Notes: generated by a model from the sequence alone, not told the origin. Counted from the stretch's first letter, positions 48,061 through 64,000 are shown. The stretch is DNA of 64,000 bases from a bacterium (GCA_021786105.1 JAJYNW010000010.1:35330-99329), one strand, 5' to 3'. Numbers and translations are program-made.

Positions 48061-49092
48061 CTACTTTAAATATTTATCAAAAAAAGATATTGCTTGTGAC
48101 ATGACCTGGGAAAGACTGGGAGTTAAGTTGTGATCAGCGCCGGGGTACTCAATATAATCAACATTTTTGCTGGAGCTTTTCAGTTTGCCACTCAATGATG
48201 AGGAAAAGTTGGGTGGCACCGTATCATCAGCAGAGCCTACTTGGATCTGAATAGGAGTTGTAATATCGGTAATGAATTGGGTCGGATCAATTGCATTCCA
48301 AAAGGTCGGATTTTCTTTTGGCAAACCCCGCTCTTTGATTATTTGTTGGATAGCATAATATGTATCTAAATCATTGCCCGTAATCGTTTGGGCGGCAAAG
48401 CGTTGGTTCCACCAATTTAAGATATCAGTTTCATTTCCCACCACCCCGGAAATAATTTCCGCCGCTTTAAAATCATGGGTTACGACTAACTCATGCAAAG
48501 TAACATTGCCGCCCATCGAATGACCAAAAACGCCGATTTTATTAGGATCAGCATCAGGATATTTTTTTATTGATGCCAAGGCATTCATGCTGTCGGTGAC
48601 ATAGCTTGGTGAGATATAAGGCTGCTCAGGTTTTCCTTGTGAGGAGCCGTTGCCCCGGTAATCAGGCTTGAAAACAATATATCCGGCGCTGGCAAGCGGT
48701 TCAACCATAACTGCATAACTTTCAGCAGTGGAGTATTGTGCTGGCGGGATATAGCCATGGTTAAAAATGATCACCGGCCAGCCGCCATTTGGTTTTTGTC
48801 CTTGGGGAACAGTTAAAAGGGCAAATTGTTTTAAGCCTTCTGATTGATAGGAAACTATATATTGATTGTAAATCGCGCCGGGCGTCAAAGTTTGCTCGAT
48901 GGTGATATTGCTGCCTGGATAGGATTTTTGTTGCATGGCAGCAATGGTCAGCGGAGACTGGTTGGTGACCGGGGCTGAGGGTGCGGAAGAAGGGGAAACT
49001 GTTGGGGACGGAGCGGGTTTTTTAAGCCGGAGGTATAGGCCTAGCCCTAAAAAGATGACGATCAACAAGGTTATTACGGCCGCTAGTTTCAT
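48061..49092 (-). CDS. Membrane-anchored alpha/beta hydrolase (S9 peptidase-like)
   Basis: NHGYI, PDYRG, GHSMGG, DDTVP, ADHN. Confidence 0.85.
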   Translation of the reverse strand: MKLAAVITLLIVIFLGLGLYLRLKKPAPSPTVSPSSAPSAPVTNQSPLTIAAMQQKSYPGSNITIEQTLTPGAIYNQYIVSYQSEGLKQFALLTVPQGQKPNGGWPVIIFNHGYIPPAQYSTAESYAVMVEPLASAGYIVFKPDYRGNGSSQGKPEQPYISPSYVTDSMNALASIKKYPDADPNKIGVFGHSMGGNVTLHELVVTHDFKAAEIISGVVGNETDILNWWNQRFAAQTITGNDLDTYYAIQQIIKERGLPKENPTFWNAIDPTQFITDITTPIQIQVGSADDTVPPNFSSSLSGKLKSSSKNVDYIEYPGADHNLTPSLSQVMSQAISFFDKYLK

Positions 49093-49104
49093 AGTCCAAT
49101 TATT

Positions 49105-49132
49105 TCTTCCTTATTTATTACAGTGATTTTAC
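49105..49132 (+). promoter_or_regulatory. 11-bp-period direct-repeat box
   Basis: TCTTCC 49105, TATTAC 49116, TTTTAC 49127. Confidence 0.45.
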
Positions 49133-49170
49133 CAAAAACTAGATAAATCTTTTGTAAGATTAAAAACACT

Positions 49171-49938
49171 ATGCCAAATGTCGGAACATCTGTGGTTGCA
49201 ACTGTCACTGATACTTTTAATAGGATCATTTTGTTTATTCCGCAGTTTATAGCCGGGTTGGTTATTTTAGTGATTGGTTGGGCGTTGGCGGTGATTTTAA
49301 AATATGTTGCCAAAAGGCTGTTTGACTGGATCGGGCTGGATAGGTTTTTGACCAGGGTAGGTTTGGAGGAAAAAACCGGGACTCACCACATTTGGACGGA
49401 GATTGCTTCCCAGGTGGTTTTCTGGTTTGTCTTTTTAGCTTTTCTGATCCCGGCATTTAATGCCTGGCAGCTTACCAATGTGACGGCTCTTTTAAATCAA
49501 ATTCTGTTTTACATTCCTAACGTCTTTGCGGCAGTGGTAATTGGGTTTATTGGTTATGTTATTGCCAATATTGCTTATAATTTAGTGAAGAATGCCGCGA
49601 GCGGAGCAGGGACTGCGGGCGCTAGCCTGCTTGGTCAGGTGGCCAAATATGCTTTGTATATTTTTACTGCCCTGGTGGTTTTAAATCAGTTGCAAATTGC
49701 TTCTAATTTGATCCAGCTGTTTGTAGCAGGATTGGTGGCTATGGCGGCTTTAGCCGGAGGGTTAGCTTTTGGTTTAGGCGGGCAAGACGTTGCCAGGGAT
49801 ATGCTTAATCGGTTGTCCGGTTTAAAAGCAGCCCGTCAAATTGGTGGACAGGCTGGCAGGCAGGCAGTTTATGCCAGCCAGGTTCGTCCGGGCAAAACTT
49901 CAAAGCATTCTCAAAACAAAGAAGAAAAGAAAGCATAA
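49171..49938 (+). CDS. TM-helix repeat protein (MscS-associated, CmpX-like)
   Basis: Repeated IP motifs before TM helices, GLAFGLGG. Confidence 0.8.
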   Translation: MPNVGTSVVATVTDTFNRIILFIPQFIAGLVILVIGWALAVILKYVAKRLFDWIGLDRFLTRVGLEEKTGTHHIWTEIASQVVFWFVFLAFLIPAFNAWQLTNVTALLNQILFYIPNVFAAVVIGFIGYVIANIAYNLVKNAASGAGTAGASLLGQVAKYALYIFTALVVLNQLQIASNLIQLFVAGLVAMAALAGGLAFGLGGQDVARDMLNRLSGLKAARQIGGQAGRQAVYASQVRPGKTSKHSQNKEEKKA

Positions 49939-49943
49939 TTTCT

Positions 49944-50810
49944 TTAAGTGCGAAGCCACTCGATAATTATTGATTTCAGTTCATCTTCATATCTTCTGAA
50001 CCAATGATCGGCATTGTCAATTAATTTTGTGGTGACTGCTGGTAGTTGTTGGCTAAGGATTTCTAAGGCAGAAGCAGGGTTTTCCTGGTATTGGGTTTTT
50101 GCTCCATACACAGCTAGTATAGGGCAATTAATTCTTTTTAATTCATTTAAATCATCACTAAAATGGAAAAGCTGGCCTTCTGCGGACTTTGGATCCGCCA
50201 AACTTAAAAACCGTTGGGCACTCAGCTCCACCCCGAAAGGAATCCAGTCAGGCATGGCTTTTTGGGGATTTCCTGAATCAATATATTCCCGGGCTATTCC
50301 TAAAGCCTCTTTGTACCGGCTACCCAAATCCTTTTTGGTTACGGCCGGATCATCAGTCGGTTCCAAAAGAATTAAACCTTTGATATCTGTTTTTGTTTGA
50401 GATGCATAGTAAGCTGCTTTTTGGGAACCAGTGCTGTGGCCTTGCAGATAAAGGTTGTTGTAGCCTAGGCTTTGCATAAAATTAACAGCGGATTCGATGT
50501 CGATTAAGCAGTCTTCGAAGCGCTCCAAACTTCCGCCCAGTTTGGCATACTCAATATTCGAGCCATTCTTTTTCATAAATTCCTGCACAAATCCAGCTCC
50601 CCGGTTATTAAAAGTCAGAAAGGAAAAGCTTTTATCAATTAATCCCTGGGCAATATGCTCCAGGAAAATATTTTCATAAAAATTGCCGGTCCAACCATGG
50701 ATATGGATGACAGCACTTTTGGTTGGTTGTTCCGTTTCAAATAGCAAACCTTGCAGCTCTAAGTTATCTTTGGTTTGCAGTCTAACTATTTTTGCTTTTA
50801 ATTTAGCCAT
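49944..50810 (-). CDS. Alpha/beta hydrolase (DUF1749-like)
   Basis: HIHGWTGNFY, NNRG, GHSTG, ADHWF; start 50810. Confidence 0.8.
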   Translation of the reverse strand: MAKLKAKIVRLQTKDNLELQGLLFETEQPTKSAVIHIHGWTGNFYENIFLEHIAQGLIDKSFSFLTFNNRGAGFVQEFMKKNGSNIEYAKLGGSLERFEDCLIDIESAVNFMQSLGYNNLYLQGHSTGSQKAAYYASQTKTDIKGLILLEPTDDPAVTKKDLGSRYKEALGIAREYIDSGNPQKAMPDWIPFGVELSAQRFLSLADPKSAEGQLFHFSDDLNELKRINCPILAVYGAKTQYQENPASALEILSQQLPAVTTKLIDNADHWFRRYEDELKSIIIEWLRT

Positions 50811-50845
50811 TGGGTTTATTATATACATTTTGTTATTATTGGGGT

Positions 50846-51706
50846 ATGTCAGATGTGAGCTTAAATGAAACTTCGTATGTTTGGAAACAAATCGCCCAAA
50901 GTTGGGGGACTTATTTTGATTCTCCCAGCCGGCCCTCAAAAATGGAAGTGGACCAATACAAAAAATGGCTGAAAAATATTTCCGAAGGCAAAACCGGACT
51001 AAAGGGATTGGTATTAGGGGCTACGCCGGAACTGCGGGATGCACTGGTTGAAAGCAACTTTAATTCCTGCATAATTGATATTAATTGGGAAATGATTTTG
51101 GCCATGACTGAACTTTTAAAGACCAAAAATCCCAATGAGGTGATTATCAAAGCCAACTGGTTAAATAACCCTTTACAGAACGGGTATTTTGATGTGGTGT
51201 TAGGAGATGCTGTTTTGCCGAATCTGCCGTGGGAAAAAAGGGATGAGTTTTATTGTGAGATTAAAAGATTGTTGAAAACAGGCGGCTATTTTATGAATCG
51301 GGCGTTTTTTGTGCCGGAAAAGAAGCCTTTTGCTAATATTGATGAATTACTAAAAGCTTTTGCACAAAAGCCAGCTTCGAATAAAACTGCTTTAGAGTTG
51401 GTTTTTGAAATCCAAATTCTGACCCACTCAGAAACTGATCATCTGGGATCAATGGAAAAAGTAGTGGCAGTGGTGGAAAAACTACGGGGCAACAACGGAT
51501 TCAATTTTGACAGCGAAGAGCTTAATAAAACACTGGATATCGTGTGGGATTACTGGTTAAAGACTGCCCGTCAGAAGATTTGGATTTATCCCTTTGAAAG
51601 GGAGGAAGAGGCAGAGTATAAAAAGTATTTTGAAACCGAGGCCAAATTTTGCTCCACCGATCACCCTTACGGCAAAATTACCCCAATGTATCTGCTGAAA
51701 TCATAA
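50846..51706 (+). CDS. Class I SAM-dependent methyltransferase-like protein
   Basis: LVLGATPE, FDVVLGD, LLKTGG. Confidence 0.75.
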   Translation: MSDVSLNETSYVWKQIAQSWGTYFDSPSRPSKMEVDQYKKWLKNISEGKTGLKGLVLGATPELRDALVESNFNSCIIDINWEMILAMTELLKTKNPNEVIIKANWLNNPLQNGYFDVVLGDAVLPNLPWEKRDEFYCEIKRLLKTGGYFMNRAFFVPEKKPFANIDELLKAFAQKPASNKTALELVFEIQILTHSETDHLGSMEKVVAVVEKLRGNNGFNFDSEELNKTLDIVWDYWLKTARQKIWIYPFEREEEAEYKKYFETEAKFCSTDHPYGKITPMYLLKS

Positions 51707-51922
51707 CTGCAGCTCAAATACTTTATATTTTGATTTGGCTCCGGAAATAAGCTTCACATTTGATTTACTGGTTTTAAAATAATCTGCCAAAGCTTCACGG
51801 GTAGCTTTATTGGCTTTACCCTCCAAAGGCGGCTGGTTAACGTAAACATGCAAGGTTCCCAGTAAATCTTTTTCTATCCTTTCCCGTCTGGCTCCGGGAT
51901 GAACAATAACGGTAATTTTCAT
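51701..51922 (-). CDS. DUF167/YggU family protein
   Basis: VHPGA, PPLEGKAN, SGAKSKYK. Confidence 0.88.
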   Translation of the reverse strand: MKITVIVHPGARRERIEKDLLGTLHVYVNQPPLEGKANKATREALADYFKTSKSNVKLISGAKSKYKVFELQL

Positions 51923-51942
51923 GATTTGATCATACATCAATT

Positions 51943-51959
51943 TCTTACCAAAATCTTCC
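51943..51959 (+). promoter_or_regulatory. 11-bp-period direct-repeat box
   Basis: TCTTAC 51943, TCTTCC 51954. Confidence 0.45.
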
Positions 51960-52008
51960 GGGATACTGATGGGGGATTATTACAGATTTGTTAAGGTTAA
52001 GCTTCAAA

Positions 52009-52578
52009 ATGAAAAGGAGGATTATTTTGGGAATATTTACCAGGCATGGAGATGCTGATAAGGCTTTGTTACGTTTAAGAAAAGAAGGAATAGAAGTCAA
52101 AGAGATTTCAGTTATTGTCAGGCAAGACATAGTAAGCAGCTATCGTTCACCCAAAAATGAATCAGAGGGGATTCTGACAGGGAGTGTTTTAGGAGGCTTG
52201 GCCGGTCTTTTAATCGGTCTGACCCCGGTGATTTTGCCGGGGATAGGTGCAGTTTTGGTGGTTGGACCACTGACGATGTTAACGACTACCTTAATGGGAG
52301 TTTTGGCCGGCGGGTTAATCGGCACGCTGGTGGAAATAGGCGTGCCGGAGCGTTCGGCCAAAATTTTTGAAAAAAGCATCAAAAAAGGGGGAGTTTTACT
52401 GGCTGTTACAGCTAATTACAAAAATGAGAAGCAGGTGCGGCAAATTTTGGACATGCATGATGTTAAGGACTTAACTATTATCCCTTCCGCTAGAAAGGTC
52501 AGCGGGCAACTGTTGGAACAACAAATCAGTGTAGCTTACCCAAGCAGGATTGCCAAGCCTGTCAGAAGAAAGGAGTAA
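52009..52578 (+). CDS. General stress protein-like membrane protein (YflT/Gly-zipper type)
   Basis: GIF...A...L...G...EISVI, Gly-rich hydrophobic core with PGIG..GPL, GGVLLAV. Confidence 0.75.
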   Translation: MKRRIILGIFTRHGDADKALLRLRKEGIEVKEISVIVRQDIVSSYRSPKNESEGILTGSVLGGLAGLLIGLTPVILPGIGAVLVVGPLTMLTTTLMGVLAGGLIGTLVEIGVPERSAKIFEKSIKKGGVLLAVTANYKNEKQVRQILDMHDVKDLTIIPSARKVSGQLLEQQISVAYPSRIAKPVRRKE

Positions 52579-52589
52579 GGTAAATAGTA

Positions 52590-52805
52590 ATGACGCAACT
52601 GGCTGTTCCGGTGGGAAAAGATGACCATACTTTAGGAAATCCTAAAGCTACGGTGATATTGTTGGAGTATGGGGATTTTGAATGCCCTAATTGCGGAGAA
52701 GCTTTTCCGGTTGTGCAGGTTGAGGAGCGGATACACCAGAATTTTATTAGCGGTGTTGAAAGTGGGGTTAATGGCACGCCAACCTTTCTTATAAATGGAG
52801 GCTGA
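52590..52805 (+). pseudogene. DsbA-family oxidoreductase with large in-frame internal deletion
   Basis: EYGDFECPNC directly fused to GVNGTPTFLING; only 71 aa. Confidence 0.7.
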
Positions 52806-52860
52806 AAAAACTAGAATTTTAATCTTCCAGAAAGTATAATTTTCAAGCCGGAATTTTTGG

Positions 52861-53778
52861 ATGGATAATAATTATATTGTTGGTTTGAAATTAAAGCCGC
52901 AAAGACAAAAGAAAAAGGTATGGGCTTGGATACTATTGCTGATCCTTGTGGCGATTGGTATATCCGGAGTTTTTAAGCGGTCTCCGGAATTGATCAGTCC
53001 ATTAAGTAGAATAAACAATTCCCTAAGAAATATCGTAGATGAATCTTTAACAGGAGCCAGGGGTACATATGGGATTGCTATAAAAAACTTAAAAAGTGGT
53101 GAAAGTTATTATTTTAATGAGCATAGAGTTTTTGAAACCGGAAGTCTTTATAAATTATGGATTATGGCCACGGTTTTTAAACAAATTCAAGACGGTGGGT
53201 TAACCGAAGACCAAGTTTTGAGTGAGGATATCGCCGCTTTAAATGAAAAATTTAACATCGATCCTGATTCGGCAGAGCTTAAGGAAGGGACAGTAACTTT
53301 GACAGTACATGATGCGTTATTGCAGATGATTGCTATTTCCCATAACTATGCAGCTTTGCTCCTGACTGAAAAAGTTAAATTATCTTCTGTGGCTGCTTTT
53401 TTGAAAGAAAATGGCTTTAGTGAATCATCTGTTGGAACTGATGGCGACCCGCCGAAATCTACCCCTGCCGATATCGCCCTTTTTTATGAAAGGCTATACA
53501 AAGGTGAATTAGCTAATCAGCAATATACACAGGAGATGGCTGATTTATTAAAGAATCAACAATCCGATGATGGGTTACCTAAATATTTGCCGGATGAAGT
53601 ACCCGTCGCTAACAAAACCGGGGATATTGGTTGGTTTAAGCATGATGCCGGGATCATTTACACCGGTAATGGAGATTACATAATAACCATCATGTCAGAA
53701 AGTGATTATCCCCCGGGAGCCCAGGAAAGAATAGCCATGATTTCTAAAGAGGTTTATGAATACTTCACTAAAAAGTAA
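52861..53778 (+). CDS. Class A beta-lactamase-like serine hydrolase, N-terminal TM
   Basis: SLYK, SHN, KTG, HDAG motifs. Confidence 0.88.
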   Translation: MDNNYIVGLKLKPQRQKKKVWAWILLLILVAIGISGVFKRSPELISPLSRINNSLRNIVDESLTGARGTYGIAIKNLKSGESYYFNEHRVFETGSLYKLWIMATVFKQIQDGGLTEDQVLSEDIAALNEKFNIDPDSAELKEGTVTLTVHDALLQMIAISHNYAALLLTEKVKLSSVAAFLKENGFSESSVGTDGDPPKSTPADIALFYERLYKGELANQQYTQEMADLLKNQQSDDGLPKYLPDEVPVANKTGDIGWFKHDAGIIYTGNGDYIITIMSESDYPPGAQERIAMISKEVYEYFTKK

Positions 53779-53788
53779 CTAAGCAACT

Positions 53789-54505
53789 TCATATCTCTAA
53801 GATCATATATGGTTGGTGGGGTGAGATTCTGGAGAGCAGGGGGAAAGAGACATTGTAAACCGGAACACCTCGGGCAGTTTTACCCTTCGGACTGCCGTGA
53901 TGAGCATGGCCATGAAAGACTGCTGTTACGCCAAAATTTTCAATCGGTTCAATCAATCGGCTGCTTCCTAACATCGGGTAGATTTCTAAAGATTCACCCA
54001 CCACTGTTTGACGGATGGGGGAATAGTGAAGCAGGACAACCTTTTTGTCAGTCTCCAGTCTTATTAAGGATTCCTCTAACTTTATGGATTCATTGACTGC
54101 TTCATAAACAAATTGTTTAAGGACTCGTTCTCCAAAGGGGTCGGTTTGGTGATTATCAAAACCGCCGCAAAAGCCTTTGACACCGGCAAAACCGATTCCT
54201 TTATAAATATAGGGGTGATTTCCTAAAAGAAATAAATGTTCGGCCGAAAGAATTTTTTTAATTTCCTCATGTTGGTTATTTTCGTGATCGTGATTTCCCA
54301 ATACTCCGACCATCGGTATTTTGCAAAAGCTTAACTCCTCAGCCAACACTTTCGCCTCAGAAACCAAGCCTTCGTTGGTTAAGTCTCCGCAAATTAATAA
54401 GATATCAGCCTTCCCGGAGACTTCTTCAAAGACTTGTCTGAAAGCTCCTACGTTTTCTTCTTGAGTATGTAAATCAGCCATGGCGGCAATACGGACTTTG
54501 GTCAT
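53789..54505 (-). CDS. Calcineurin-like metallophosphoesterase
   Basis: DLH, GDLT, GNHD, HGHAH. Confidence 0.9.
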   Translation of the reverse strand: MTKVRIAAMADLHTQEENVGAFRQVFEEVSGKADILLICGDLTNEGLVSEAKVLAEELSFCKIPMVGVLGNHDHENNQHEEIKKILSAEHLFLLGNHPYIYKGIGFAGVKGFCGGFDNHQTDPFGERVLKQFVYEAVNESIKLEESLIRLETDKKVVLLHYSPIRQTVVGESLEIYPMLGSSRLIEPIENFGVTAVFHGHAHHGSPKGKTARGVPVYNVSFPLLSRISPHQPYMILEI

Positions 54506-55221
54506 GCTAAAACTTCAAATCCCAACTCAGTAATATCAAACTTATATTGGGTTCGGGAAAGCAGTGGCCCCCGGCAAATTTTATCCTGGGGGATTGGATT
54601 TTGGATTTGGTACTTTACGCGGGAAATGAGTTCTTCCAGGAGCCAGTTGGGGATAATATCCCTTTCTGAAGGGTAAACAAAGCGGAAGTTAAGGATCAGT
54701 GATAAAAGTATTTCCCAGTGATTTTCCATGCGGACGAGTAGTCTTTTCCAATTTAACTGCCTGCCGGTTATTAAAATAAGGTGGTTGATATCAGCGCCGT
54801 CATAATGATCGCGGTCTTGGATATACGCTTTGCACCAAATTAATTCTTCTTTTGGGATAAGTTTGACCTGGTAGCCCAGAAGCTTAATATAAACGGCATT
54901 TTCAAACCAGGAATCGTCAACAGTGATGATATAGTTTGGTGAAGAAAACAATATGTCAACATGATCCTTGGCTTCTATCACCTGCGCCAGCCACCTTTCA
55001 TCCAATATTTTGATATCTATGCCGGTTTGTTTGAGGATTGCCACAATTTTGGGAAAATCCCCGGCTTTACAAAAAACATCAAGGTCGTTAGTCGGGCGGT
55101 TAAAGCTTGTATATTCATATACTGCAAATCCTCCTCCAATCACAAAAGGAACACCGGTTTTGATAATAATACTCAAAATCCTGCCATAAAAATCCCTGGC
55201 AGCAGACTGGTTTTTCGGCAC
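54502..55221 (-). CDS. Nucleotidyltransferase family protein
   Basis: IGGGFA, RPTNDLDV, RDHYDGAD; overlaps the phosphoesterase start. Confidence 0.85.
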   Translation of the reverse strand: MPKNQSAARDFYGRILSIIIKTGVPFVIGGGFAVYEYTSFNRPTNDLDVFCKAGDFPKIVAILKQTGIDIKILDERWLAQVIEAKDHVDILFSSPNYIITVDDSWFENAVYIKLLGYQVKLIPKEELIWCKAYIQDRDHYDGADINHLILITGRQLNWKRLLVRMENHWEILLSLILNFRFVYPSERDIIPNWLLEELISRVKYQIQNPIPQDKICRGPLLSRTQYKFDITELGFEVLA

Positions 55222-55289
55222 GAGGTAACGATAAGACTGTACTGTTATAAGGTTATTAAAATTTGGTAATAATCATGAAAGTAATTTCG

Positions 55290-55346
55290 GTATCTTCCAT
55301 AGTTCTTACTCAGTTCTGACTTAGTTATGACTCTTAATTTAAATCC
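55290..55346 (+). promoter_or_regulatory. 11-bp tandem direct-repeat operator-like site
   Basis: AGTTCTTACTC AGTTCTGACTT AGTTATGACTC (55301-55333), followed by TTAATTTAAATCC; near-copy at 63457-63502. Confidence 0.7.
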
Positions 55347-55375
55347 GGCTGTTAGGATGAAAGGTATTTGAAGAT

Positions 55376-56365
55376 GTGAAATTACTTTTTATTGGCGACG
55401 TTATGTTAGGTCGATTAGTGAATGAGGTTTTAAAAAAAGAATCTCCCGAATATCCGTGGGGAGATACTTTGGATATTTTTCAGCAGGCTGATTATAGAAT
55501 CTGTAATTTAGAATGTGTTATCTCTGACAAAGGTCAGCCCTGGACCATTACTCCCAAAGCTTTCCATTTTCGGTCAGACAGCAAGAATATCGCCGTGTTA
55601 GAAAAAGCCCGGATTGATATGGTGTCTTTGGCCAATAACCATGTTTTGGATTATGAGGATGAAGCTATGATGGATATGCTGGAAATTTTGGATGACGGAG
55701 AGGTGGCCTACGCCGGAGCCGGTATGATTTTTGTTGAGGCTTCTGCCCCGACAATTTTAACAACTCAAAAAGAAAAGCTCAAAATTGGCTTGATTGCTTT
55801 TACAGACAACGAGCCGGAATGGGAAGCCTCCGGAGATGATGACCCTGGAGTTTTTTATGTACCAGTGGATTTGGCGGATAAGCGGGCGGAATACTTAATG
55901 CATCAGGTTCAGGAAGCAAAAAAAGAGGCAAATTTCTTAATTGTGTCTGCTCATTGGGGACCTAATTGGGGACACCGGCCTCAACCGGAACATATTCCTT
56001 TTGCTAAGGCCTTGATTGATGCCGGAGCAGATTTAATTTTTGGTCACTCAGCCCATGTTTTTCAGGGAATTGAGATTTATAAAGGAAAACCAATTCTATA
56101 TTCCACTGGAGATTTTGTAGATGATTATGCGGTGGATGAAATCGAGAGAAATGATCAGTCGTTTATTTTTGAGGTTGAGGTTGATGAAAAAGGCGGATTA
56201 AGAGGGATAAAACTTTACCCGACTGTTATTAGGAATATGCAGGCCAGAATTGCTCAGGAGCCGGAGCTTAAGGATATTGTTTTTAAAATGATTGAGCTTT
56301 GTGATGAGTTTAATACCAAAAGTACTTGGTTGGAAAGTGAGCATTGCTTGGAAATACGAACATGA
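55376..56365 (+). CDS. CapA/PGA_cap family metallophosphoesterase
   Basis: GDVML, NLE, ANNHVLD, HWG, GHSAH. Confidence 0.9.
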   Translation: MKLLFIGDVMLGRLVNEVLKKESPEYPWGDTLDIFQQADYRICNLECVISDKGQPWTITPKAFHFRSDSKNIAVLEKARIDMVSLANNHVLDYEDEAMMDMLEILDDGEVAYAGAGMIFVEASAPTILTTQKEKLKIGLIAFTDNEPEWEASGDDDPGVFYVPVDLADKRAEYLMHQVQEAKKEANFLIVSAHWGPNWGHRPQPEHIPFAKALIDAGADLIFGHSAHVFQGIEIYKGKPILYSTGDFVDDYAVDEIERNDQSFIFEVEVDEKGGLRGIKLYPTVIRNMQARIAQEPELKDIVFKMIELCDEFNTKSTWLESEHCLEIRT

Positions 56366-57186
56366 ATGGTATTATTGAAGCTAAATTGCTGGATCCATAT
56401 AAAAATCAGCCAATTGCCTTAAAGGTGGTTTCTGCCGGTGATTTGGAAATTACTCCGCACGCCAGAAAGCCCAGTGATTTCCACATTAAGCGCTTAATTC
56501 ACTCTATTGAGAAGCTTGGTTTCCTTGTTCCACTAATCGTAGTGGAGGATCCGCAAAAGGCGGGTAAATATCAAATTATCGACGGTCAGCATCGTTTTAT
56601 CGCTGCTACCATGATGCAGATTAATAAACTGCCGGTAATTGTAGTTCCTTCGTATTTGGCCGAAAGCTTGATGAATTTTAATACGGAAAAAGAGATGAAC
56701 ATTAGGGAAAGGTCAGCTATTGCCTTGTCAATTTACCGGCATTACTTATCTACTAAACCGGGGATGTTGGAAGCGGCGGCGGAAATTATTAATGCTTTAG
56801 AACATGCGTATTTAGTGACATTAGGATTAGGGTATGAAAGGACTGAAGATTTATCCGGATCAGCTTTTGAGAGTGTACTGTCCAAATGTGATTTCTTTTT
56901 AAGCACTCCCCTCAAAATTGCTCATAAAATCAGGGAAGATAGAGCCCAGTCGGTTTTGACTGCGAATACCCTGATCAAAAATATTTCTGAGCGGCTGCGG
57001 GAACTAGGACAGTGGCATCCTTATGTGTACCAGCAGATTGTAACCTGGGCGAACCCTTTTAAAAGGAAAAGGATGACAGTTGAGTTTGATGAACTCTTTC
57101 CGCCCCTTTTAGAAAACCTGGAGAAATTAAGTAAAGACCCCAAGCCTTTCATTGAAGAGGTTTTAAAAGAAGAAGAGGAGGGTTAA
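56362..57186 (+). CDS. ParB/Srx N-terminal domain protein
   Basis: GFLVPLIV, IIDGQHR. Confidence 0.8.
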   Translation: MNGIIEAKLLDPYKNQPIALKVVSAGDLEITPHARKPSDFHIKRLIHSIEKLGFLVPLIVVEDPQKAGKYQIIDGQHRFIAATMMQINKLPVIVVPSYLAESLMNFNTEKEMNIRERSAIALSIYRHYLSTKPGMLEAAAEIINALEHAYLVTLGLGYERTEDLSGSAFESVLSKCDFFLSTPLKIAHKIREDRAQSVLTANTLIKNISERLRELGQWHPYVYQQIVTWANPFKRKRMTVEFDELFPPLLENLEKLSKDPKPFIEEVLKEEEEG

Positions 57187-57187
57187 T

Positions 57188-58225
57188 CTGAAAATAGCCC
57201 AAATCGCTACCATCATTGAACGGGTGCCGCCGAAAAAATATGGCGGTTCGGAACGGATTGTTTATACTTTAACAGAGGAGCTAATAAAAAGAGGGCACGA
57301 AGTAACTCTTTTTGCCAGCGGCGACTCGCAAACTTCAGCCAAGCTTGTTTCGGTGTACCCAAGATCACTGCGGGAAGCAAAGATAAAGGATATGTATGAT
57401 TTGAACGACTTGACACTGCTTCATCTCGGTACACCATATACCATGGAAGATCAGTTTGACATTGTCCATGACCATATTGGTGTATTTAGTTTGCCGGTGG
57501 CTCAAAAATCCAAAACTCCGGTTTTGATGACTTTGCATGGTCCGTTTACCGCGACTAACAGGCGTCTATACAGTACGTTTCGAAACCCTTATCTGGCGGC
57601 AATTTCCCGCTCCCAGGTTAAATTTGCTCCACCGGTCGCCACTGTGGCCGGTGTTGTTTATAACGGGCTGGCCATGGATGGGTATCCGTATTCTTCGGAA
57701 AACGACGGGTATTTACTTTTTGTTGGGAGGATTTCAATGGAGAAAGGAACCCATCATGCGATAGAAGTGGCGCAAAATCTTGATCTGCCGCTGATTATTG
57801 CTGCAAAGCTGGATCTAACTGACGTAGCTTATTTTAATGAGTATGTCGGGCCGCAGCTTTCCGATGATCGGATCCGCTGGATCGGTGAAGTAGACGAGGT
57901 AGAAAGGAATAAACTGATGAGCCGGGCGCTTTGCTTGCTACACCCCATTACCTGGAGGGAGCCGTTTGGATTAACGATGATTGAGGCAATGGCTTGCGGT
58001 TGTCCGGTTATTGCCTTCAATAAAGGGTCAATTCTGGAAATCGTTGTTGATGGTAAAACCGGATTTATTGTTGAGGATTTGGAAGGGATGATTGAAGCGG
58101 TAAGTAAGGTAGGATCCATTGACCGGTCATTCTGTCGAAGGTATGCGTTGGACAATTTTAATGCCGGTAGAATGACTGACGGATATGAAGATATCTACCG
58201 TCGGATATTAGAAAACAAAAAATGA
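57188..58225 (+). CDS. GT4 glycosyltransferase (probable CTG start)
   Basis: KIAQIA..ERVPPKKYGGSE, GRISMEKG, EPFGLTMIEAMACG. Confidence 0.88.
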   Translation: MKIAQIATIIERVPPKKYGGSERIVYTLTEELIKRGHEVTLFASGDSQTSAKLVSVYPRSLREAKIKDMYDLNDLTLLHLGTPYTMEDQFDIVHDHIGVFSLPVAQKSKTPVLMTLHGPFTATNRRLYSTFRNPYLAAISRSQVKFAPPVATVAGVVYNGLAMDGYPYSSENDGYLLFVGRISMEKGTHHAIEVAQNLDLPLIIAAKLDLTDVAYFNEYVGPQLSDDRIRWIGEVDEVERNKLMSRALCLLHPITWREPFGLTMIEAMACGCPVIAFNKGSILEIVVDGKTGFIVEDLEGMIEAVSKVGSIDRSFCRRYALDNFNAGRMTDGYEDIYRRILENKK

Positions 58226-59481
58226 ATTTCCAAGGATTACAAAAAGTTGATTATCAACCAAAATCGTTTTTGGAATACACAAAACTGATGCCTGAGGTTG
58301 TTAAAGAAATTCAAAGTGTAGCCAAGGATTTGAAGGGGTTAAGGGTAGTTCATCTTAATGCTACGGCAGTGGGCGGAGGAGTGGCGGAAATACTTCGTTC
58401 AGAGGTACCTTTGCAAACAGATACAGGGTTGGATGAAAGTTGGTATGTAATTCCTCCGAACATGGAATTTTTTGAAGTGACCAAAAAGATCCATAACTTA
58501 ATGCAGGGGAAGCCGGGCAGATTAAAAACACAGGAGAAAAAGATCTATATCCAATACAACAAATTTATTGCCCAGGCTCTGAGCGAGCTGCAGCCACAGC
58601 CTCAGATTCTGATCATTCATGACCCGCAGCCGGCTGCCTTGATTAGCTTTTTAAGTGAGGAAAGACCAGATTTTGTGATTTGGCGCTGCCACATTGATAC
58701 TTCTTCTCCTAATCCGGCTATGTGGCAATTCCTGCTACCTTATCTTAAATGTTTTGACCATTTTATTTTTACCCTGCCGGAATATACACATAAAGATTTT
58801 CCGCCCCCAAACCAAAGCAGTTTTTTTACTCCGGTGATTGACCCTTTTTCTGCTAAAAATATATTAATGGATAAAGGCCAAGCCAAAGAATATACTAAAA
58901 AATTTGGCATAGATATTGTTAAACCACTGGTTACCCAAGTCTCGCGTCTTGATCCCTGGAAAGATCCCTTGGGAGTAATTGATGCCTATCGGTTGGCAAA
59001 AAAGGAAATTCCTACTCTGCAACTGGCACTGGTAGCCCAATCAGCCACCGATGACCCGGAAGGGGAAGTTTTGTATACCAAAGTGAGAGATTATATTGGA
59101 GGTGAAAAAGGAATTTTTTTGCTGGTAAACCTAAGAAATAACGATAAAGCAGTCAATGCCTTCCAAACCGCCTCAAGTATTATCTTGCAGAAATCGATCC
59201 GGGAAGGGTTTGGTCTGACGGTTACTGAAGCGATGTGGAAAGGTGCGGTTGTCATAGGCGGGAATGTGGGCGGCATAAAACTGCAGATTAAAGATGGTGT
59301 TAACGGTTTTGTGGTCAACTCGCCTATCGAGGCCGCCCGGAAAATTATATATGTGCTTAATAATCCGCAGGTACAGGAAAAGATCTCCCAAAACGCCCAT
59401 GAATCCGTCAAAAATAAATTTTTAATGCCACACGCAATTATCAACTATCTCAACTTATTTAAAACATTATTAAACAGATGA
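58222..59481 (+). CDS. treT: Trehalose synthase TreT-like GT4
   Basis: NATAVGGGVAEIL, HDPQP, WRCHID, SRLDPWKD, EGFGLTVTEAMWK. Confidence 0.85.
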   Translation: MNFQGLQKVDYQPKSFLEYTKLMPEVVKEIQSVAKDLKGLRVVHLNATAVGGGVAEILRSEVPLQTDTGLDESWYVIPPNMEFFEVTKKIHNLMQGKPGRLKTQEKKIYIQYNKFIAQALSELQPQPQILIIHDPQPAALISFLSEERPDFVIWRCHIDTSSPNPAMWQFLLPYLKCFDHFIFTLPEYTHKDFPPPNQSSFFTPVIDPFSAKNILMDKGQAKEYTKKFGIDIVKPLVTQVSRLDPWKDPLGVIDAYRLAKKEIPTLQLALVAQSATDDPEGEVLYTKVRDYIGGEKGIFLLVNLRNNDKAVNAFQTASSIILQKSIREGFGLTVTEAMWKGAVVIGGNVGGIKLQIKDGVNGFVVNSPIEAARKIIYVLNNPQVQEKISQNAHESVKNKFLMPHAIINYLNLFKTLLNR

Positions 59482-59491
59482 AGCTGGATTT

Positions 59492-61552
59492 ATGAGAAGA
59501 AGCAATCTTGTTATCAGCAGCGGAAATATTTTTATGATTTCAAATTTTACCGGTGATATTGTGGCTCAGGATTATCAGGGCCTATTTTCTGCTGATGTTA
59601 GACACCTGAGCAAACTAGAACTGCTTATTAATAATAGTCCTCTCGAGGCTTTGTCATCTCAGGAGACAGGTTTTCATAGCGCTTCCATAGTTTTAGGCAA
59701 TTATCCGACCAAAGACCTTTCAAGGTTTGATTTAACTATCATCCGTAAACGTACCATTACTAAAATATTCCACGAAGATATAGAAGTAAAGAATAATACT
59801 CAAAAGCAGTTAAGTTTTCTGCTGGGTTTAAAGTTCGATACTGATTTTTCCGATATATTTGAGATTAGAGCCTTAACTCGCGGAGGAAACCAGGAGCATC
59901 CTAATAAACGTTTCATTACAAAAAACTTTAGGAAAAAACATCTGCTGATTTTTTCCTATGCCAGAGATGCTTTTAGAAGAACTACCGTCATCCATTTTAG
60001 TCAACCAGTTCAGTTAAAAGGCAATATTGTTAATCTTTCCGTTTCGCTTCAACCGAAACAACGGCTTACTTTTTCGTTTTCAATTGCTTTCTTGGCAGGG
60101 AGAAAAACAATTACGGTCAGAAGGTTGGAAAAAATAAAAAAAGAAGCAGAGATTTTAAAGGAGTGGCACTGGTCAAAATTGACGCTGCAGACTGACTGGG
60201 ATGATTTCGAGCAGGCAATTAGCCAAAGTCTAAGCGACCTAGCAGCACTTCGTATCTACCAGGAAGAAATGCCTGGGAAAATTACTTCGCTGCCTGCTGC
60301 CGGTATCCCTTGGTTCGTGGCAATTTTTGGCCGGGATAGTTTAATAACTGCTTATCAAACCATAATCTTTGGATTAGAGTTAGCAATTTCAACTCTTAAA
60401 TTTTTGGCAAAATACCAGGGGAAAGAAGTAAACCCCTTGCGGGATGAGCAGCCGGGAAAAATTTTGCACGAAATGCGCTTTGGCGAGACGGCCTATTTTA
60501 GGAATTGGGTGCCGTTTCCTTATTATGGAGCTGTAGATACCACGCCGCTTTTTTTGATACTTTTATCCGAGGTTTACCGATTCGGAGCCTCAGTTGGGTT
60601 CATTAAAGAGATGAAGGATTCAGCTCTTAAGGCGCTAAAATGGATTGATGAGTATGGTGATATGGATCAGGATGGCTTTGTGGAGTATCAAAGGGGGTCA
60701 GAAAGGGGGCTTAAAAATCAAAACTGGCGCGATTCCTGGGATTCAATGATTTTTAGAAACGGAGAAATAGCCCAAACCCCGATTACCTCAAGTGATGTCC
60801 AGGGTTATGTCTATGATGCAAAAATGCGCATTGCCGAGATTGCCAGATCTGTTTGGCAGGACATCTCTCTGGCAGTAAGGCTGGAACAAGAAGCAGCCGA
60901 GCTTAAAGGTAGGTTTAACGAAGCCTTTTGGATTAAAAGTAAGGGCTATTTTGCTTTAGGATTGGATAGAAACAAAAGACAGATTGACTCACTTTCTTCT
61001 GGTATCGGCCAGTTGCTTTGGAGTGATATTGTAAACGAAGAAAAGATCCCGCGAGTAGTAAGTCTTCTTTTTTCAAATGGGTTATACAGCGGGTGGGGAG
61101 TGAGAACTATCAGCAAAGATGATAAAGGATATAATCCGTTGATTTACCATCGGGGAACGGTTTGGCCGCATGATAATAGTTTGATTGCAGCCGGATTGGT
61201 TAAGGCCGGACAAAGAGAGAAAGCTTTGCAGATAATTCTTGATACGATTACAGCCAGCTCCTTTTTTAATTACCGATTGCCGGAAGTATTTGCCGGCTTT
61301 GACCGGTCTGAAATTCCGTTTCCGGTCCAATACCCCACCGCTGCCAGTCCGCAAGCCTGGTCAGCCGGAGCCCCAATCCTTTTCCTGCGTCTGCTTTTAG
61401 GGATAGAGCCTGATATCAAACGTCAAACATTGCGGATAAATCCGATGTTACCGCCAAATATGGATTACCTTACCGTCGATGGTATTTCTGCCTTCAGAAA
61501 ATATTTTTCCATTAGGGCTGGCAAAGACGGGTCAAAGATTGTACCGCAGTAA
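59492..61552 (+). CDS. Amylo-alpha-1,6-glucosidase / glycogen debranching family glycoside hydrolase
   Basis: AGIPWF..FGRDSL, PGKILHE, YHRGTVWPHDN, PQAWS. Confidence 0.88.
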   Translation: MRRSNLVISSGNIFMISNFTGDIVAQDYQGLFSADVRHLSKLELLINNSPLEALSSQETGFHSASIVLGNYPTKDLSRFDLTIIRKRTITKIFHEDIEVKNNTQKQLSFLLGLKFDTDFSDIFEIRALTRGGNQEHPNKRFITKNFRKKHLLIFSYARDAFRRTTVIHFSQPVQLKGNIVNLSVSLQPKQRLTFSFSIAFLAGRKTITVRRLEKIKKEAEILKEWHWSKLTLQTDWDDFEQAISQSLSDLAALRIYQEEMPGKITSLPAAGIPWFVAIFGRDSLITAYQTIIFGLELAISTLKFLAKYQGKEVNPLRDEQPGKILHEMRFGETAYFRNWVPFPYYGAVDTTPLFLILLSEVYRFGASVGFIKEMKDSALKALKWIDEYGDMDQDGFVEYQRGSERGLKNQNWRDSWDSMIFRNGEIAQTPITSSDVQGYVYDAKMRIAEIARSVWQDISLAVRLEQEAAELKGRFNEAFWIKSKGYFALGLDRNKRQIDSLSSGIGQLLWSDIVNEEKIPRVVSLLFSNGLYSGWGVRTISKDDKGYNPLIYHRGTVWPHDNSLIAAGLVKAGQREKALQIILDTITASSFFNYRLPEVFAGFDRSEIPFPVQYPTAASPQAWSAGAPILFLRLLLGIEPDIKRQTLRINPMLPPNMDYLTVDGISAFRKYFSIRAGKDGSKIVPQ

Positions 61553-61567
61553 AGGATGAATTAAATT

Positions 61568-62005
61568 TTATCTGCCGTATGTTCCGATAATTTGAGCTGC
61601 ATCAATAACATGGCCTTCTATTGCTTCCAGGATTTCTTCGGCTGTTGCGCCTGCTTCTAAATCCAATGGTCCGTCTAAAGCATAAAGGGTGAAGATGTAT
61701 TTGTGAATACCCGAAGGAGGGCAAGGGCCGCTGTATTCTGAGTGTTCAGAATCATTTTTCCCCTCTATTGCTGTTGACGGTACGCTATCTTCGTCAATAT
61801 GGTCGGTGCCTGGATCCATATTGAATAATAACCAATGATAAAAGGTCTTGCCCGGTGCATCAGGATCAGAAACTATTAAGGCTAAGCTTGCCGCCTCGCT
61901 TGGAATATCTTCAAACTTTAAGGGAGGGTTAATATCTTCACCGTCACAAGTATATTTTTGAGGAATTTTTCCATTGTTTTCAAAAACCGGACTGGTTATT
62001 TCCAT
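61568..62005 (-). CDS. YbhB/YbcL (PEBP) family protein
   Basis: YTCDG, DPDAP, HW, GPCPP, YALD. Confidence 0.93.
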   Translation of the reverse strand: MEITSPVFENNGKIPQKYTCDGEDINPPLKFEDIPSEAASLALIVSDPDAPGKTFYHWLLFNMDPGTDHIDEDSVPSTAIEGKNDSEHSEYSGPCPPSGIHKYIFTLYALDGPLDLEAGATAEEILEAIEGHVIDAAQIIGTYGR

Positions 62006-62039
62006 TTTAGTAGTTACTTTTTAAATATACGTTTAAAAG

Positions 62040-62105
62040 TTAAGATCTGAGACAAAGAAAAGTAAGCTTACTGCAAGAATTATTTGAATCTTACAGATTT
62101 TTAAC
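62040..62105. promoter_or_regulatory. Direct-repeat boxes in divergent intergenic region
   Basis: Plus strand TCTTAC 62089 and TTTAAC 62100; minus-oriented TTAAG 62040, GTAAG 62062, GCAAG 62073. Confidence 0.5.
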
Positions 62106-62166
62106 GCCTTTTTGCCCGAAATCTATTAAAAAAGAAGTAGCATGAAAGTGAAAGAGGGCGAGTAAA

Positions 62167-62457
62167 GTGGCAGGAGAGTCAAAGACAACCACAAACCATG
62201 AGGAGATTAAGAAGTGGGTTGAACAGCGGGGTGGCCGTCCAGCTATTGTTAGGGGTACGGAAAAAACCGGAGAGGGAATAGGTCTTTTGCGGATAGATTT
62301 TCAGGGAGACGGGGAAGGGCCGGATCCATCACTACGCCCCATATCCTGGGAAGAATTTTTCCAAACATTTGATGGGAAAAATTTAGCCTTTTTATATCAG
62401 GATCAAACGGCAGAAGGAAAAGAAAGCAGATTCTTTAAACTAGTCAGCAGAACTTAG
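62167..62457 (+). CDS. Conserved small hypothetical protein (TTTxHxEIxxW family)
   Basis: TTTNHEEIKKWVEQRGGRPA, LRIDF, SWEEFF. Confidence 0.75.
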   Translation: MAGESKTTTNHEEIKKWVEQRGGRPAIVRGTEKTGEGIGLLRIDFQGDGEGPDPSLRPISWEEFFQTFDGKNLAFLYQDQTAEGKESRFFKLVSRT

Positions 62458-62465
62458 GTGATTAG

Positions 62466-63107
62466 ATGTTTTTTCAAAATCGTCAGGAAGCAGGGAAAAA
62501 GTTAGCTTCTGAAATCTTTAAATACCGGAAGGAAAATCCTTTTGTTTTAGCCATACCCAAAGGGGGTGTGCCGATTGGTTATGAAATTGCTGAGGTTTTG
62601 CTAGCCCCCTTAGAGGTGTTGGTGGTAAGGAAAATTGTTCTATCGGGAGATAAAGATTTTGGGATAGGCGTTATTGCCGAGGGGGGGATAAAAATTTTGG
62701 ATCAAACTACCATTGAGGTTTTAGGTATTGATGATGTGGAGTTGAAAGATACGATTGATTTGGAAGAAAAAGAACTGGAAAAGCGGGTGGAAATTTACCG
62801 GGGCGGGGAGCTGCCGAGTTTAACCGGCAAGACGGTAATTTTGGCAGATGACGGAATGGCTACGAGCATGACAGCCAAAGCAGCAGTTGAAGCGGTTAAG
62901 AAGCTAGATCCGAAAAAGATAATTTTTGCCACTCCGGTTTGCGTTTTGGATATGGCGGAGAATCTGCGCCGACTAATAGATGATGTTATTTGTCTGGCAG
63001 CGCCGGCTGAATTTATGGCTGAAAAGTTCTGGTATGACAATTTTACCCAAATGTCTGATGAAGAAATATTAAGGTTGCTGGAGGAAAATAGAAAAAGGAA
63101 TGGTTAA
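62466..63107 (+). CDS. Phosphoribosyltransferase-family protein
   Basis: FQNRQEAG, PKGGVP, ADDGMAT. Confidence 0.88.
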   Translation: MFFQNRQEAGKKLASEIFKYRKENPFVLAIPKGGVPIGYEIAEVLLAPLEVLVVRKIVLSGDKDFGIGVIAEGGIKILDQTTIEVLGIDDVELKDTIDLEEKELEKRVEIYRGGELPSLTGKTVILADDGMATSMTAKAAVEAVKKLDPKKIIFATPVCVLDMAENLRRLIDDVICLAAPAEFMAEKFWYDNFTQMSDEEILRLLEENRKRNG

Positions 63108-63114
63108 TTTAAAA

Positions 63115-63378
63115 TTATTGTTTGCCTTCTTTTCCCTGGATTCTTTTTTTGCTTTCTAAATCCGGCTCATTGCTATGAACGTCGCCGCTGCTGACTCCTG
63201 GAGTGTGCATGGCAGACGAATCGCTGTATTCCAAATCATTAGGCTCTTTGGGAGTTTCGGTGCCTTTGTCGTCGGTGTCGTCATACATGACATGCCCGGT
63301 TTTCTTGATGTGTTCGTCCAACTCCGTCTCGTTTTTTGCAATAAAACCGCAAACAGGACATTTCCAAGGTTTAGCCAT
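63115..63378 (-). CDS. Small C2H2 zinc-finger protein with acidic tail
   Basis: WKCPVCG...LDEHIKKTGH; start 63378. Confidence 0.65.
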   Translation of the reverse strand: MAKPWKCPVCGFIAKNETELDEHIKKTGHVMYDDTDDKGTETPKEPNDLEYSDSSAMHTPGVSSGDVHSNEPDLESKKRIQGKEGKQ

Positions 63379-63426
63379 CTTTAACTCCAGCTTAATACTT
63401 TTGAATAAAAACCGAATCATTAAAGC

Positions 63427-63502
63427 GTAAGGAAAAAGTAAGATATTTTTTTCAATCAGTCTTTCATAGTTCTTACTTTGTTTTAACTCTTAATTCAAAC
63501 CC
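63427..63502. promoter_or_regulatory. Direct-repeat boxes in divergent intergenic region
   Basis: GTAAG 63427 and 63438 (minus-oriented); AGTTCTTACTT TGTTTTAACTC 63468-63489 followed by TTAATTCAAACCC. Confidence 0.65.
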
Positions 63503-63521
63503 AATTAGTAGTATATAGAGA

Positions 63522-63857
63522 ATGGAAGAGGCGATCAGGAATAGTTTAGATTGTTACAGAATCTGTGAAGAAACCATTGCTTATTGCTTGAAAATGGGCG
63601 GTAGGTACGTAGAGCCTGATCATGTGCAGATTGTGGTCGATTGTGCCCAGATGTGTAATCTTCATGCTTCATTTATGATCAGAAATTCCAATTTTGCGGG
63701 CCGGACTGCCGAACTTTGTGCTGATATTTGTGAGAAATGTGCAGCCAGTTGCGAAGCGGTAGACCCGGAAGATACGCAGCTGAAAACCTGTGCTGAGATG
63801 TGCAGAAAGTGTGCCGCCTCTTGTAGAAAAGTGGAACAAAGAACAGAAGTAGTATAA
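63522..63857 (+). CDS. Cys-rich four-helix-bundle copper storage protein (DUF326/YhjQ-like)
   Basis: Repeated CxxxCxxC motifs (CADICEKCAASC, CAEMCRKCAASC). Confidence 0.9.
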   Translation: MEEAIRNSLDCYRICEETIAYCLKMGGRYVEPDHVQIVVDCAQMCNLHASFMIRNSNFAGRTAELCADICEKCAASCEAVDPEDTQLKTCAEMCRKCAASCRKVEQRTEVV

Positions 63858-64000
63858 GAACCTCTTTAATTCCCCGCAATGTCCCCGTAAATATCCGACA
63901 CTAACTCCTCTCTAAGGGTGGTCTCATGCCTTTGTTAATATGTGGCCTGTGATAATGATATCTGTCTAAGAACTGGTTAACAACTAGGGTAAGTTGAGGT

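Follow-up and report, generated by a model that had tools for sequence, protein, structure and literature searches.

The 64,000-nucleotide stretch G000:C6:35330-99329 (the window, by which is meant this whole stretch, whose 3' limit is the end of its contig) belongs to a bacterial genome, G000, of 1,037,274 bases in 26 contigs, with about 40% G+C and a completeness of 92%. Within the last 15 kb of the window, eight promoters carry arrays of short direct repeats. The repeats (for example GTTCTTACT) have a period of 11 base pairs (bp), are found in two to four units per array, and lie ahead of genes for stress proteins. This work, in which all evidence is computational, concerns these arrays, the genes behind them and the response regulator that is predicted to bind them. 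The gene calls used for G000 are crude (the longest open reading frames, or ORFs, of at least 80 amino acids), and the non-coding share of the genome by these calls is 9.3%.

Two of the arrays are near copies of each other. At window positions 55298-55346 the sequence consists of CATA, GTTCTTACTca, GTTCTGACTta and GTTATGACTct followed by TAATTTAAATCC, and at 63465-63502 it consists of CATA, GTTCTTACTtt and GTTTTAACTct followed by TAATTCAAACCC. Both have the same 13-mer at the 5' end and ACTCTTAATTYAAAYCC at the 3' end, with a gap of 19 nucleotides between these in the first copy and of 8 in the second, which agrees with the first-pass annotation in its description of near copies that differ by a single 11-bp unit. 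In an ungapped alignment anchored at the 3' end, 49 of the 79 aligned columns are invariant, and an extra degenerate unit can be seen upstream in each copy (ATCTTCC and GTCTTTC). With this unit included, the first array extends over 55292-55346 on the plus strand (ATCTTCC, TTCTTAC at 55303, TTCTGAC at 55314, TTATGAC at 55325, then TAATTTAAATCC) and the second over 63459-63502, also on the plus strand (GTCTTTC, TTCTTAC at 63470, TTTTAAC at 63481, then TAATTCAAACCC). Each copy is followed at the same distance, 21 nucleotides past the C of its last strong unit, by a -10-like hexamer on the plus strand, TAGGAT at 55353-55358 and TAGTAT at 63509-63514, which would serve as the -10 element; the second lies 7 nucleotides ahead of an ATG. 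The position of a -35 element reads ACTCTT in both copies, and no -35-like hexamer is present there. The two copies also share flanks beyond the units themselves (CATA and TAATTYAAAYCC), as would be the case if they were one promoter duplicated by descent, with the remaining arrays being T-rich intergenic noise and no regulon at all. The genome-wide and comparative results given below make that explanation very improbable.

The array at 55292 stands ahead of a five-gene operon on the plus strand (55376-61552), which encodes a PGA_cap protein, a ParB_N-like protein, a GT4 glycosyltransferase, the trehalose synthase TreT and a GDE-type glycoside hydrolase. A paralogue of the PGA_cap gene at G000:C26:34435-35430, 58% identical, has no array upstream. 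The array at 63459 precedes a plus-strand gene (63522-63857) for a Cys-rich, four-helix-bundle, Csp1-like protein of the copper-storage type (TIGR04401, 33.3 bits, below the cut-off). DNA nearly identical to window positions 54900-63990 (86-99% of sampled words) is present in five sequencing runs of mine-drainage and mine-tailings metagenomes, drawn from two studies, and this assembly may have come from two of those runs; none of the runs listed for this DNA is an RNA run.

The remaining arrays in the window are weaker. On the plus strand, three units with an 11-bp period (TTCTTCC, TTATTAC and ATTTTAC; 49104-49136) lie upstream of an MscS-like, CmpX-like gene for a small mechanosensitive channel (49171-49938, plus strand; PF05552, 71.6 bits), and two unit pairs (TTCTTAC/ATCTTCC at 51942 and TTATTAC/TTGTTAA at 51977; together 51942-51998) lie upstream of a gene for a YflT-like general-stress protein (51988-52578, plus strand; PF11181, 22.3 bits, below the cut-off of 26.2). 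These two pairs are 35 nucleotides apart and are consequently 2 nucleotides out of phase; the real start of the YflT-like gene is probably ATG 52009 or TTG 52027, 3' of an AAGGAGG. On the minus strand, an array at 62040-62079 (TTCTTGC, AGCTTAC, a further position and ATCTTAA), which is followed 10 nucleotides later by TATATT (62029-62024), serves a gene of the YbhB/PEBP family (61568-62005, minus strand). The plus-strand pair ATCTTAC/TTTTAAC (62088-62105) is upstream of a 96-amino-acid ORF without a family match and a phosphoribosyltransferase gene (PF00156), which together occupy 62167-63107 on the plus strand. The minus-strand pair ATCTTAC/TCCTTAC (63427-63444) is upstream of a gene for a small zinc-finger-like protein (63115-63420, minus strand; PF12756, 24.2 bits, below the cut-off). 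The listed start of this last ORF, at 63420, is only 7 nucleotides from the repeat units, and a second ATG, at 63378, sits 6 nucleotides past a GGAG; the true start is likely to be ATG 63378.

These sites, which had been listed from the sequence as further hexamers at 11-bp spacing, are for the most part real 11-bp matches: those at 49104, 51942/51977 and 62088 on the plus strand, and at 62079-62040 and 63444-63427 on the minus strand. The exception is the minus-strand site near 63967, where the units (AACTTAC, TTGTTAA and TTCTTAG; 63955-63995) are doubtful, the spacings are 12 and 11, and no target gene lies downstream; the site is at the contig end. The same minus-strand segment contains a sigma-70-like TTGTTA-N17-TATCAT that reads leftwards, towards the 3' end of the Csp-like gene, and is followed by no ORF; it may have no function, or may drive an antisense or small RNA.

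The units are not limited to the window. Arrays were counted in G000 by clustering intergenic units at a period of 11 or 22 with matches of at least 5 of 7 positions. By this count there are 30 arrays in the genome, compared with 4-12 at periods of 8, 9, 10, 12, 13 and 14, so that about 20 stand above the background. Six of the 30 are on contig C6, all of them within window positions 49104-63459. An earlier impression that housekeeping promoters are free of such arrays is thereby supported for the rest of the window. Of the arrays located between genes of the same strand, 8 are oriented with the genes and 3 against them; 18 of the 30 lie in divergent regions.

The same preference for 11 bp is seen when arrays are not assembled at all. 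A matrix built from five window units finds 15 pairs at a spacing of 11 in which both members reach at least 7 bits, where the 18 remaining spacings between 7 and 25 have 0-6 each; at a threshold of at least 8 bits the pairs number 8, against 0-2 elsewhere. Three of the pairs at spacing 11 are the seeds themselves. For the fixed core T[CT]T[AGT]AC, the counts of intergenic pairs are highest at spacings of 11 (11 pairs) and 22 (6 pairs) and range from 0 to 5 at the other spacings between 6 and 33. Around the 70 intergenic occurrences of TT[CA]TTAC, a second unit with at least a 5/7 match is found 20 times at -11, 17 times at +11 and 13 times at +22, against 0-7 times at every other offset from 7 to 33, and no offset peak is present around the 398 occurrences of the same heptamer inside ORFs. 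An iterated matrix search was dropped in favor of these fixed-core tests, having drifted into T-rich sequence. That drift, together with the 4-12 arrays counted at other periods at the same 5/7 level, is what one would expect of intergenic noise; peaks that are sharp, occur at no offsets other than 11 and 22, and are confined to intergenic DNA are not. The repeats are a real family of phased cis-elements that is confined to intergenic DNA.

The position of the units relative to the putative -10 element is also regular. Read by eye, the last base of the units falls at about -23, -34, -45 and -56 (within one nucleotide) from the -10-like hexamer, and this phasing holds in the window arrays, in the promoters of genes for GlsB-like proteins, and at C14:22991, C14:27794 and C20:25054. 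The number of units and their distance to the -10 hexamer vary in steps of 11. None of the five array-bearing intergenic regions of the window contains a canonical sigma-70 -35/-10 match (9 of 12 positions). A sigma-70 consensus scan of 49000-64000 yields 28 sites against 31.6 expected and is uninformative overall. At window positions 63509-63521, as in the GlsB promoters (L198-L206), the -10-like hexamer is located 6-11 nucleotides before the start codon with no Shine-Dalgarno sequence between. Because of this short distance, several mRNAs of the predicted regulon may be leaderless or near-leaderless.

Stress regulons are often driven by alternative sigma factors, and G000 has two genes for sigma factors of the extracytoplasmic function (ECF) type, neither of which has a close ortholog in five motif-poor members of the genus. 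The units might then be promoter elements of such a factor. However, two to four units at a fixed 11-bp period, at a distance from the -10 hexamer that changes in steps of 11, do not fit a -35/-10 pair, and the distribution of the two factors argues against them as well. Among the 17 relatives that carry an ortholog of the candidate regulator described below, nine (G003, G006, G009, G010, G014, G016, G022, G033 and G036) have no match at E<=1e-25 to the sigma factor on contig C26, which is matched in G017, a genome without that ortholog; the one on contig C8 is found only in G016, G018 and G040. We regard an ECF sigma factor as a most unlikely reader of the units.

A promoter with phased units and no -35 box might in principle be activated or repressed through them. 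In a repressor model, the same regulator would bind the arrays, keep RNA polymerase out by way of the units at -34 and -23, and come off the DNA under stress. The window units do overlap the -35 region and the spacer, and many relatives have an extra GTAAGAA just past the -10 element of the regulator's own gene, which is a typical operator position. On the other hand, promoters that lack a -35 box are a hallmark of dependence on an activator; the units farthest from the -10 hexamer, whose ends fall at -45 and -56, are the strongest, as they are in the GlsB promoters; and in several relatives (loci L067 and L095) the pair is positioned just upstream of a good TTGAC-N17-TAnAAT promoter, where a class-I activator would bind. 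Repression is therefore unlikely, though less so than the sigma factor model, and activation is the mode assumed in what follows.

Regulators of the OmpR/PhoB family bind direct repeats about one helical turn apart, and a regulator of this kind had been proposed from the window sequence, with its gene lying elsewhere. G000 encodes two proteins that combine a REC with a Trans_reg_C domain, one atypical Trans_reg_C protein, three single REC proteins, and three sigma-70-family proteins, among which are the two ECF-like ones. The two canonical response regulators, at C20:6376-7047 and C14:16946-17620, score above the cut-offs for both PF00072 and PF00486. The first of these is on another contig than the window, as predicted; it has the motif at its own promoter, the motif is kept there in relatives, and the gene tracks the motif across genomes. 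In particular, the region upstream of the C20 regulator gene contains TTTGTAATAAC-TTTGTAATAAA, a pair of units in reverse complement, and the divergent GlsB-like gene (C20:5710-5961) has TTCTTGC-N4-TTCTTAC. The reversed pair, TGTAAGA-N4-TGTAATA(A), is placed just upstream of a -35 element of the TTGAAn or TTGAGT type and a TATAAT-like -10 element of the regulator gene. Besides G000, 12 of the 20 further ortholog loci examined have it (G001, G003, G006, G009, G010, G011, G012, G014, G016, G018, G036 and L106); no clear reversed pair was seen in the other eight (G005, G020, G022, G023, G028, G033, G035 and L107). The GlsB-like gene is divergent from the regulator gene in G000, G001, G010, G014, G006 and L106.

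Judged by model scores, the C20 regulator is not an equivalog of any named regulator, its best scores all being below the respective cut-offs (MtrA, 214.9 against 300; PhoB, 212.9 against 296.2; YycF, NF040534, 172.4 against 340; RpaB, 184.9 against 330). Its nearest relatives of solved structure are PhoP, MtrA and RegX3 of M. tuberculosis, and its only named close match in public genomes is in a metagenome-assembled genome (MAG) of 'Candidatus Levyibacteriota', at 54% identity. A search of genome contigs for regulator loci has two close relatives among the 80 loci kept. One locus, L106 (CAZYBP010000018.1), is titled 'uncultured Gammaproteobacteria' and encodes a regulator that is 79% identical, along with the GlsB-like protein and the GAF kinase, and the repeat pair is present there too; this MAG seems to bear a wrong taxonomic label. 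In G000, a gene for a GAF-HisKA-HATPase kinase (C20:7037-8212, minus strand), in which Pfam shows those domains only, converges on the regulator gene.

Since all proteins of the OmpR family read direct repeats about one helical turn apart, the arrays could instead be read by the C14 regulator, by the 399-amino-acid Trans_reg_C protein (C8:15883) or by an unrelated factor, and the divergent GlsB gene could be the actual target of the site beside the C20 regulator gene. Against this, the reversed pair stays beside the C20-type gene even where no GlsB neighbor is present (G003, G009, G012 and G011). The C14 regulator has a different 11-bp-period repeat in its own upstream region (C14:16872-16945), in which TCTCAGGT occurs twice and is directly followed by TAAAAT. 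In addition, putative orthologs of the C14 regulator, matches of 38-44% identity, which is the level of this paralogue, are present in genomes without enrichment of the motif, such as G002. A different DNA-binding protein is thus an improbable reader of the arrays. The TCTCAGGT repeat is probably the autoregulatory site of the C14 regulator, whose best model is the heavy-metal CztR/SilR/CopR family (241 bits, below the cut-off of 279).

The comparison set consists of G000 and 40 relatives (G001-G040), which are kin to one another. Orthologs of the C20 regulator at 60% identity or more are present in 17 of the 40 relatives. The pattern TCTDAC-N5-TYTDAC averages 6.8 matches per genome in these 17 (115 in all) and 2.4 in the remaining 23 (55 in all), with 12 in G000 itself, whereas a control with a period of 13 averages 2.7 (46 in all) and 2.4 (56 in all), respectively. 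The enrichment reaches other families of the class: G036 has 9 matches, 7 of which are TCTTAC-N5-CTCTTAC upstream of small ORFs, one of them for a BON protein, and G033 has 7, three of them no more than 5 kb from its regulator gene. The GlsB-like gene has a similar distribution, being found in 12 of the 17 relatives with the regulator and 3 of the 23 without it. In the GlsB promoters of all eight genus genomes examined (8 of the 18 GlsB loci, these being the genus members except G010, in which the arrangement differs), the unit pair is kept and a TAnnnT hexamer follows 32 nucleotides (33 in G009) past the proximal strong unit and 6-11 nucleotides ahead of the ATG. The pair thus recurs at the regulator gene of 13 loci and, at a fixed distance, in the GlsB promoters of eight genomes, and the motif is enriched in distant families that have the regulator, all of which is difficult to reconcile with a single duplicated promoter amid noise.

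Forty loci around selected matches to TCTDAC-N5-TYTDAC were inspected further. Of the 43 matches in them, 36 have an ORF of at least 50 amino acids starting within 400 nucleotides, and several are clearly inside genes. Among 29 ORFs scanned behind these matches, 17 have no Pfam family and 12 have one: two Lon (G003 and G009), two GlsB-like (G006 and G009), GreA, GSDH, a GT20 OtsA-like protein (G010), a cupredoxin, HisG, PMT_2, a weak HAD and PaaX_M. The genes of the window island seldom have orthologs (1 of 40 relatives with a good score for PGA_cap, and 1 of 40 for the Csp-like gene), and consequently conservation is seen mainly at GlsB, the regulator gene and Lon. As for the window genes themselves, the Csp-like ortholog in G014 has units upstream on both strands, and the PGA_cap ortholog is treated below.

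Several results weigh against assigning the arrays to the C20 regulator, or against the size of the regulon. At the 5/7 match level, chance alone would account for about 8 of the 30 arrays. A control with the pattern written backwards has about 5 matches per genome whether the ortholog is present or not (91 in the 17 genomes that have it, 114 in the 23 that do not), which means that the raw excess over this control in the ortholog-bearing genomes is small; these co-occurrence counts are, moreover, not independent, being uncorrected for the kinship of the relatives. Three genomes (G018, G023 and G035) have the ortholog and only 2-3 matches, and G015 has 7 matches without an ortholog, although G015 is 88% complete and its contig breaks off 215 nucleotides from the GlsB gene, in the direction in which the regulator gene would be expected. 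The PGA_cap ortholog in G012 is inside an operon and has no array directly upstream. The kinase ortholog (at least 50% identity) is adjacent in just 5 of the 20 other regulator loci. The site at the regulator gene is oriented opposite to the gene, and a matrix built from the relatives' regulator-upstream sites missed the window arrays at its threshold and, with all 11 positions, showed no clear enrichment of spacing 11 (7 pairs against 0-6 at others). The relatives' sites have an A after TAC and are often TTATTAC; the window units have a T after TAC. This regulator-upstream matrix was set aside as too narrow, and its 7-nucleotide core version gave 3 pairs, all intergenic.

Taken together, and with these points counted, the phasing of the units, the site at the regulator's own promoter and the distribution across genomes argue that the arrays are likely to be the binding sites of one OmpR/PhoB-family response regulator, G000:C20:6376-7047. 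In the mechanism that we propose, a cytoplasmic stress signal would lead the GAF kinase to phosphorylate the regulator. The regulator would then bind, presumably head-to-tail, to the two to four units on one face of the helix, near -56, -45, -34 and -23 as counted from a -10-like TAnnnT hexamer without a -35 box. Bound in this way it would recruit RNA polymerase, much as PhoB does at pho boxes.

The suggestion that the window arrays mark a general-stress regulon finds support in the genes that they precede. Arrays are positioned ahead of the genes for the MscS-like channel, two YflT proteins, the PGA_cap-TreT operon, the PEBP-family, Csp-like, Lon, DUF308, GlsB-like, BON and DUF2267 proteins. 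The targets outside the window comprise Lon, a DUF308/HdeD-like protein, the GlsB/YeaQ-like protein (Transgly_assoc), the second YflT protein (46.7 bits), a BON protein and DUF2267; further ones in G000 are a GmhB-like HAD phosphatase, GT4 and GT9 transferases, a bactofilin-like membrane protein, a class-A penicillin-binding protein and several proteins without a family match. The regulon most likely comprises roughly 20 promoters, judging from their predicted sites, mostly of general-stress, osmotic and envelope-protection genes, and would include the regulator's own promoter. Some types of target recur across genomes, namely Lon (G000, G003 and G009) and BON (G000 and G036). Trehalose synthesis recurs by way of different enzymes, the TreT operon in G000 and the GT20 OtsA-like gene in G010, and thus seems to be placed under the same motif in two species via unrelated enzymes. 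At the latter locus (L083, G010:C20:6500-8810), TCTTAC-N5-TTCTTAC precedes a GT20 OtsA-like trehalose-phosphate synthase with a 270-amino-acid N-terminal extension that is hydrophobic at its start. A small protein (an ORF of 88-128 amino acids with no Pfam match) is encoded directly after a tRNA gene at L067, L091, L095 and G000:C14:75220; in G001, G014 and G015 this gene has a unit pair along with a good TTGAC-N17-TAnAAT promoter, and in G000 the arrangement is weaker.

To our knowledge, almost nothing is known of transcriptional control in bacteria of the candidate phyla radiation (CPR), or Patescibacteria, which cannot be grown alone, and a literature search found no published description of the motif or of any CPR regulon in the titles and abstracts that it returned. 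What the analysis provides, for a putative member of this group, is a defined motif, a named candidate regulator and some 20 listed promoters, each open to testing without cultivation. The gene list suggests which proteins such ultra-small cells would call on jointly during stress (trehalose synthesis, a mechanosensitive channel, Lon, BON, YflT, GlsB and the Csp-like protein), and several genes of unknown function gain a stress context from it. Going further, the GAF kinase and OmpR-type regulator with their roughly 20 promoters could constitute a master general-stress switch, for osmotic, desiccation, metal and envelope stress, in some Microgenomates-group CPR bacteria, an accessory package that the species of one genus would either have complete or lack entirely. 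We offer this broader view tentatively, as somewhat less probable than its opposite. The mechanism is ordinary for the OmpR family; the value of the system is in the organism and the gene list.

The proposed system can be compared with several that are well known. The box of the OmpR-family regulator WalR/VicR (YycF) of Firmicutes is TGTWAH-N5-TGTWAH, refined in S. mutans to TGTWAHA-N4-TGTWAHA (PMC4168254). The resemblance is clear, given that this box too consists of two direct hexamer repeats with an 11-bp period, and that the unit found here, read on the other strand, is TGTAAKA-N4-TGTAAKA. With respect to that consensus, the TGTAAT half of the site at the regulator gene fits, but the TGTAAG half has G at the H position, and the window units read AGTAAG, with A rather than T before GTAAG. 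The proteins and targets differ further. The C20 regulator falls far below the YycF equivalog cut-off already given; the kinase is a soluble GAF protein without the PAS and transmembrane architecture of WalK (HK_WalK, 135.3 bits against a cut-off of 725); and the targets are stress proteins, not mainly cell-wall hydrolases. By regulator, kinase and targets this is not a WalRK (YycFG) system.

At the pho boxes of E. coli, direct repeats about one turn apart replace the -35 element of weak promoters, PhoB dimers bind in phase, and the regulator controls its own operon. The arrays are similar in having phased direct repeats in place of a -35 box and in including the regulator's own promoter. However, the unit sequence differs, the C20 regulator scores below the PhoB cut-off (TIGR02154, with the values given above), and no pst or pho gene is present among the annotated targets; the Pho regulon (PhoBR) was rejected on the basis of that score and the lack of phosphate-uptake targets. 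RpaB of cyanobacteria and DrRRA of Deinococcus are OmpR-family proteins that govern broad stress regulons, RpaB through the TTAC-containing HLR1 direct repeats, which have a period of 10 bp. The system proposed here would share with both the family of the regulator and the breadth of the stress regulon, and with RpaB the TTAC-containing repeats; it differs from RpaB in model score, lineage, period and targets.

In Bacillus, the sigma-B general stress regulon places YflT-type, BON/OsmY-like and GlsB/YeaQ-like proteins, proteases and compatible-solute synthesis under one switch. The predicted switch here is a two-component regulator acting through repeats, unlike the alternative sigma factor of that regulon, and the two ECF-like sigma factors of G000 do not track the motif. 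In the kinds of proteins controlled, however, the two regulons are the same, which would make this one a functional analogue of the sigma-B regulon. If the broader view is correct, a kinase/regulator pair does in these bacteria the job that sigma-B or EcfG does elsewhere, and the regulator, GlsB and the arrays go together.

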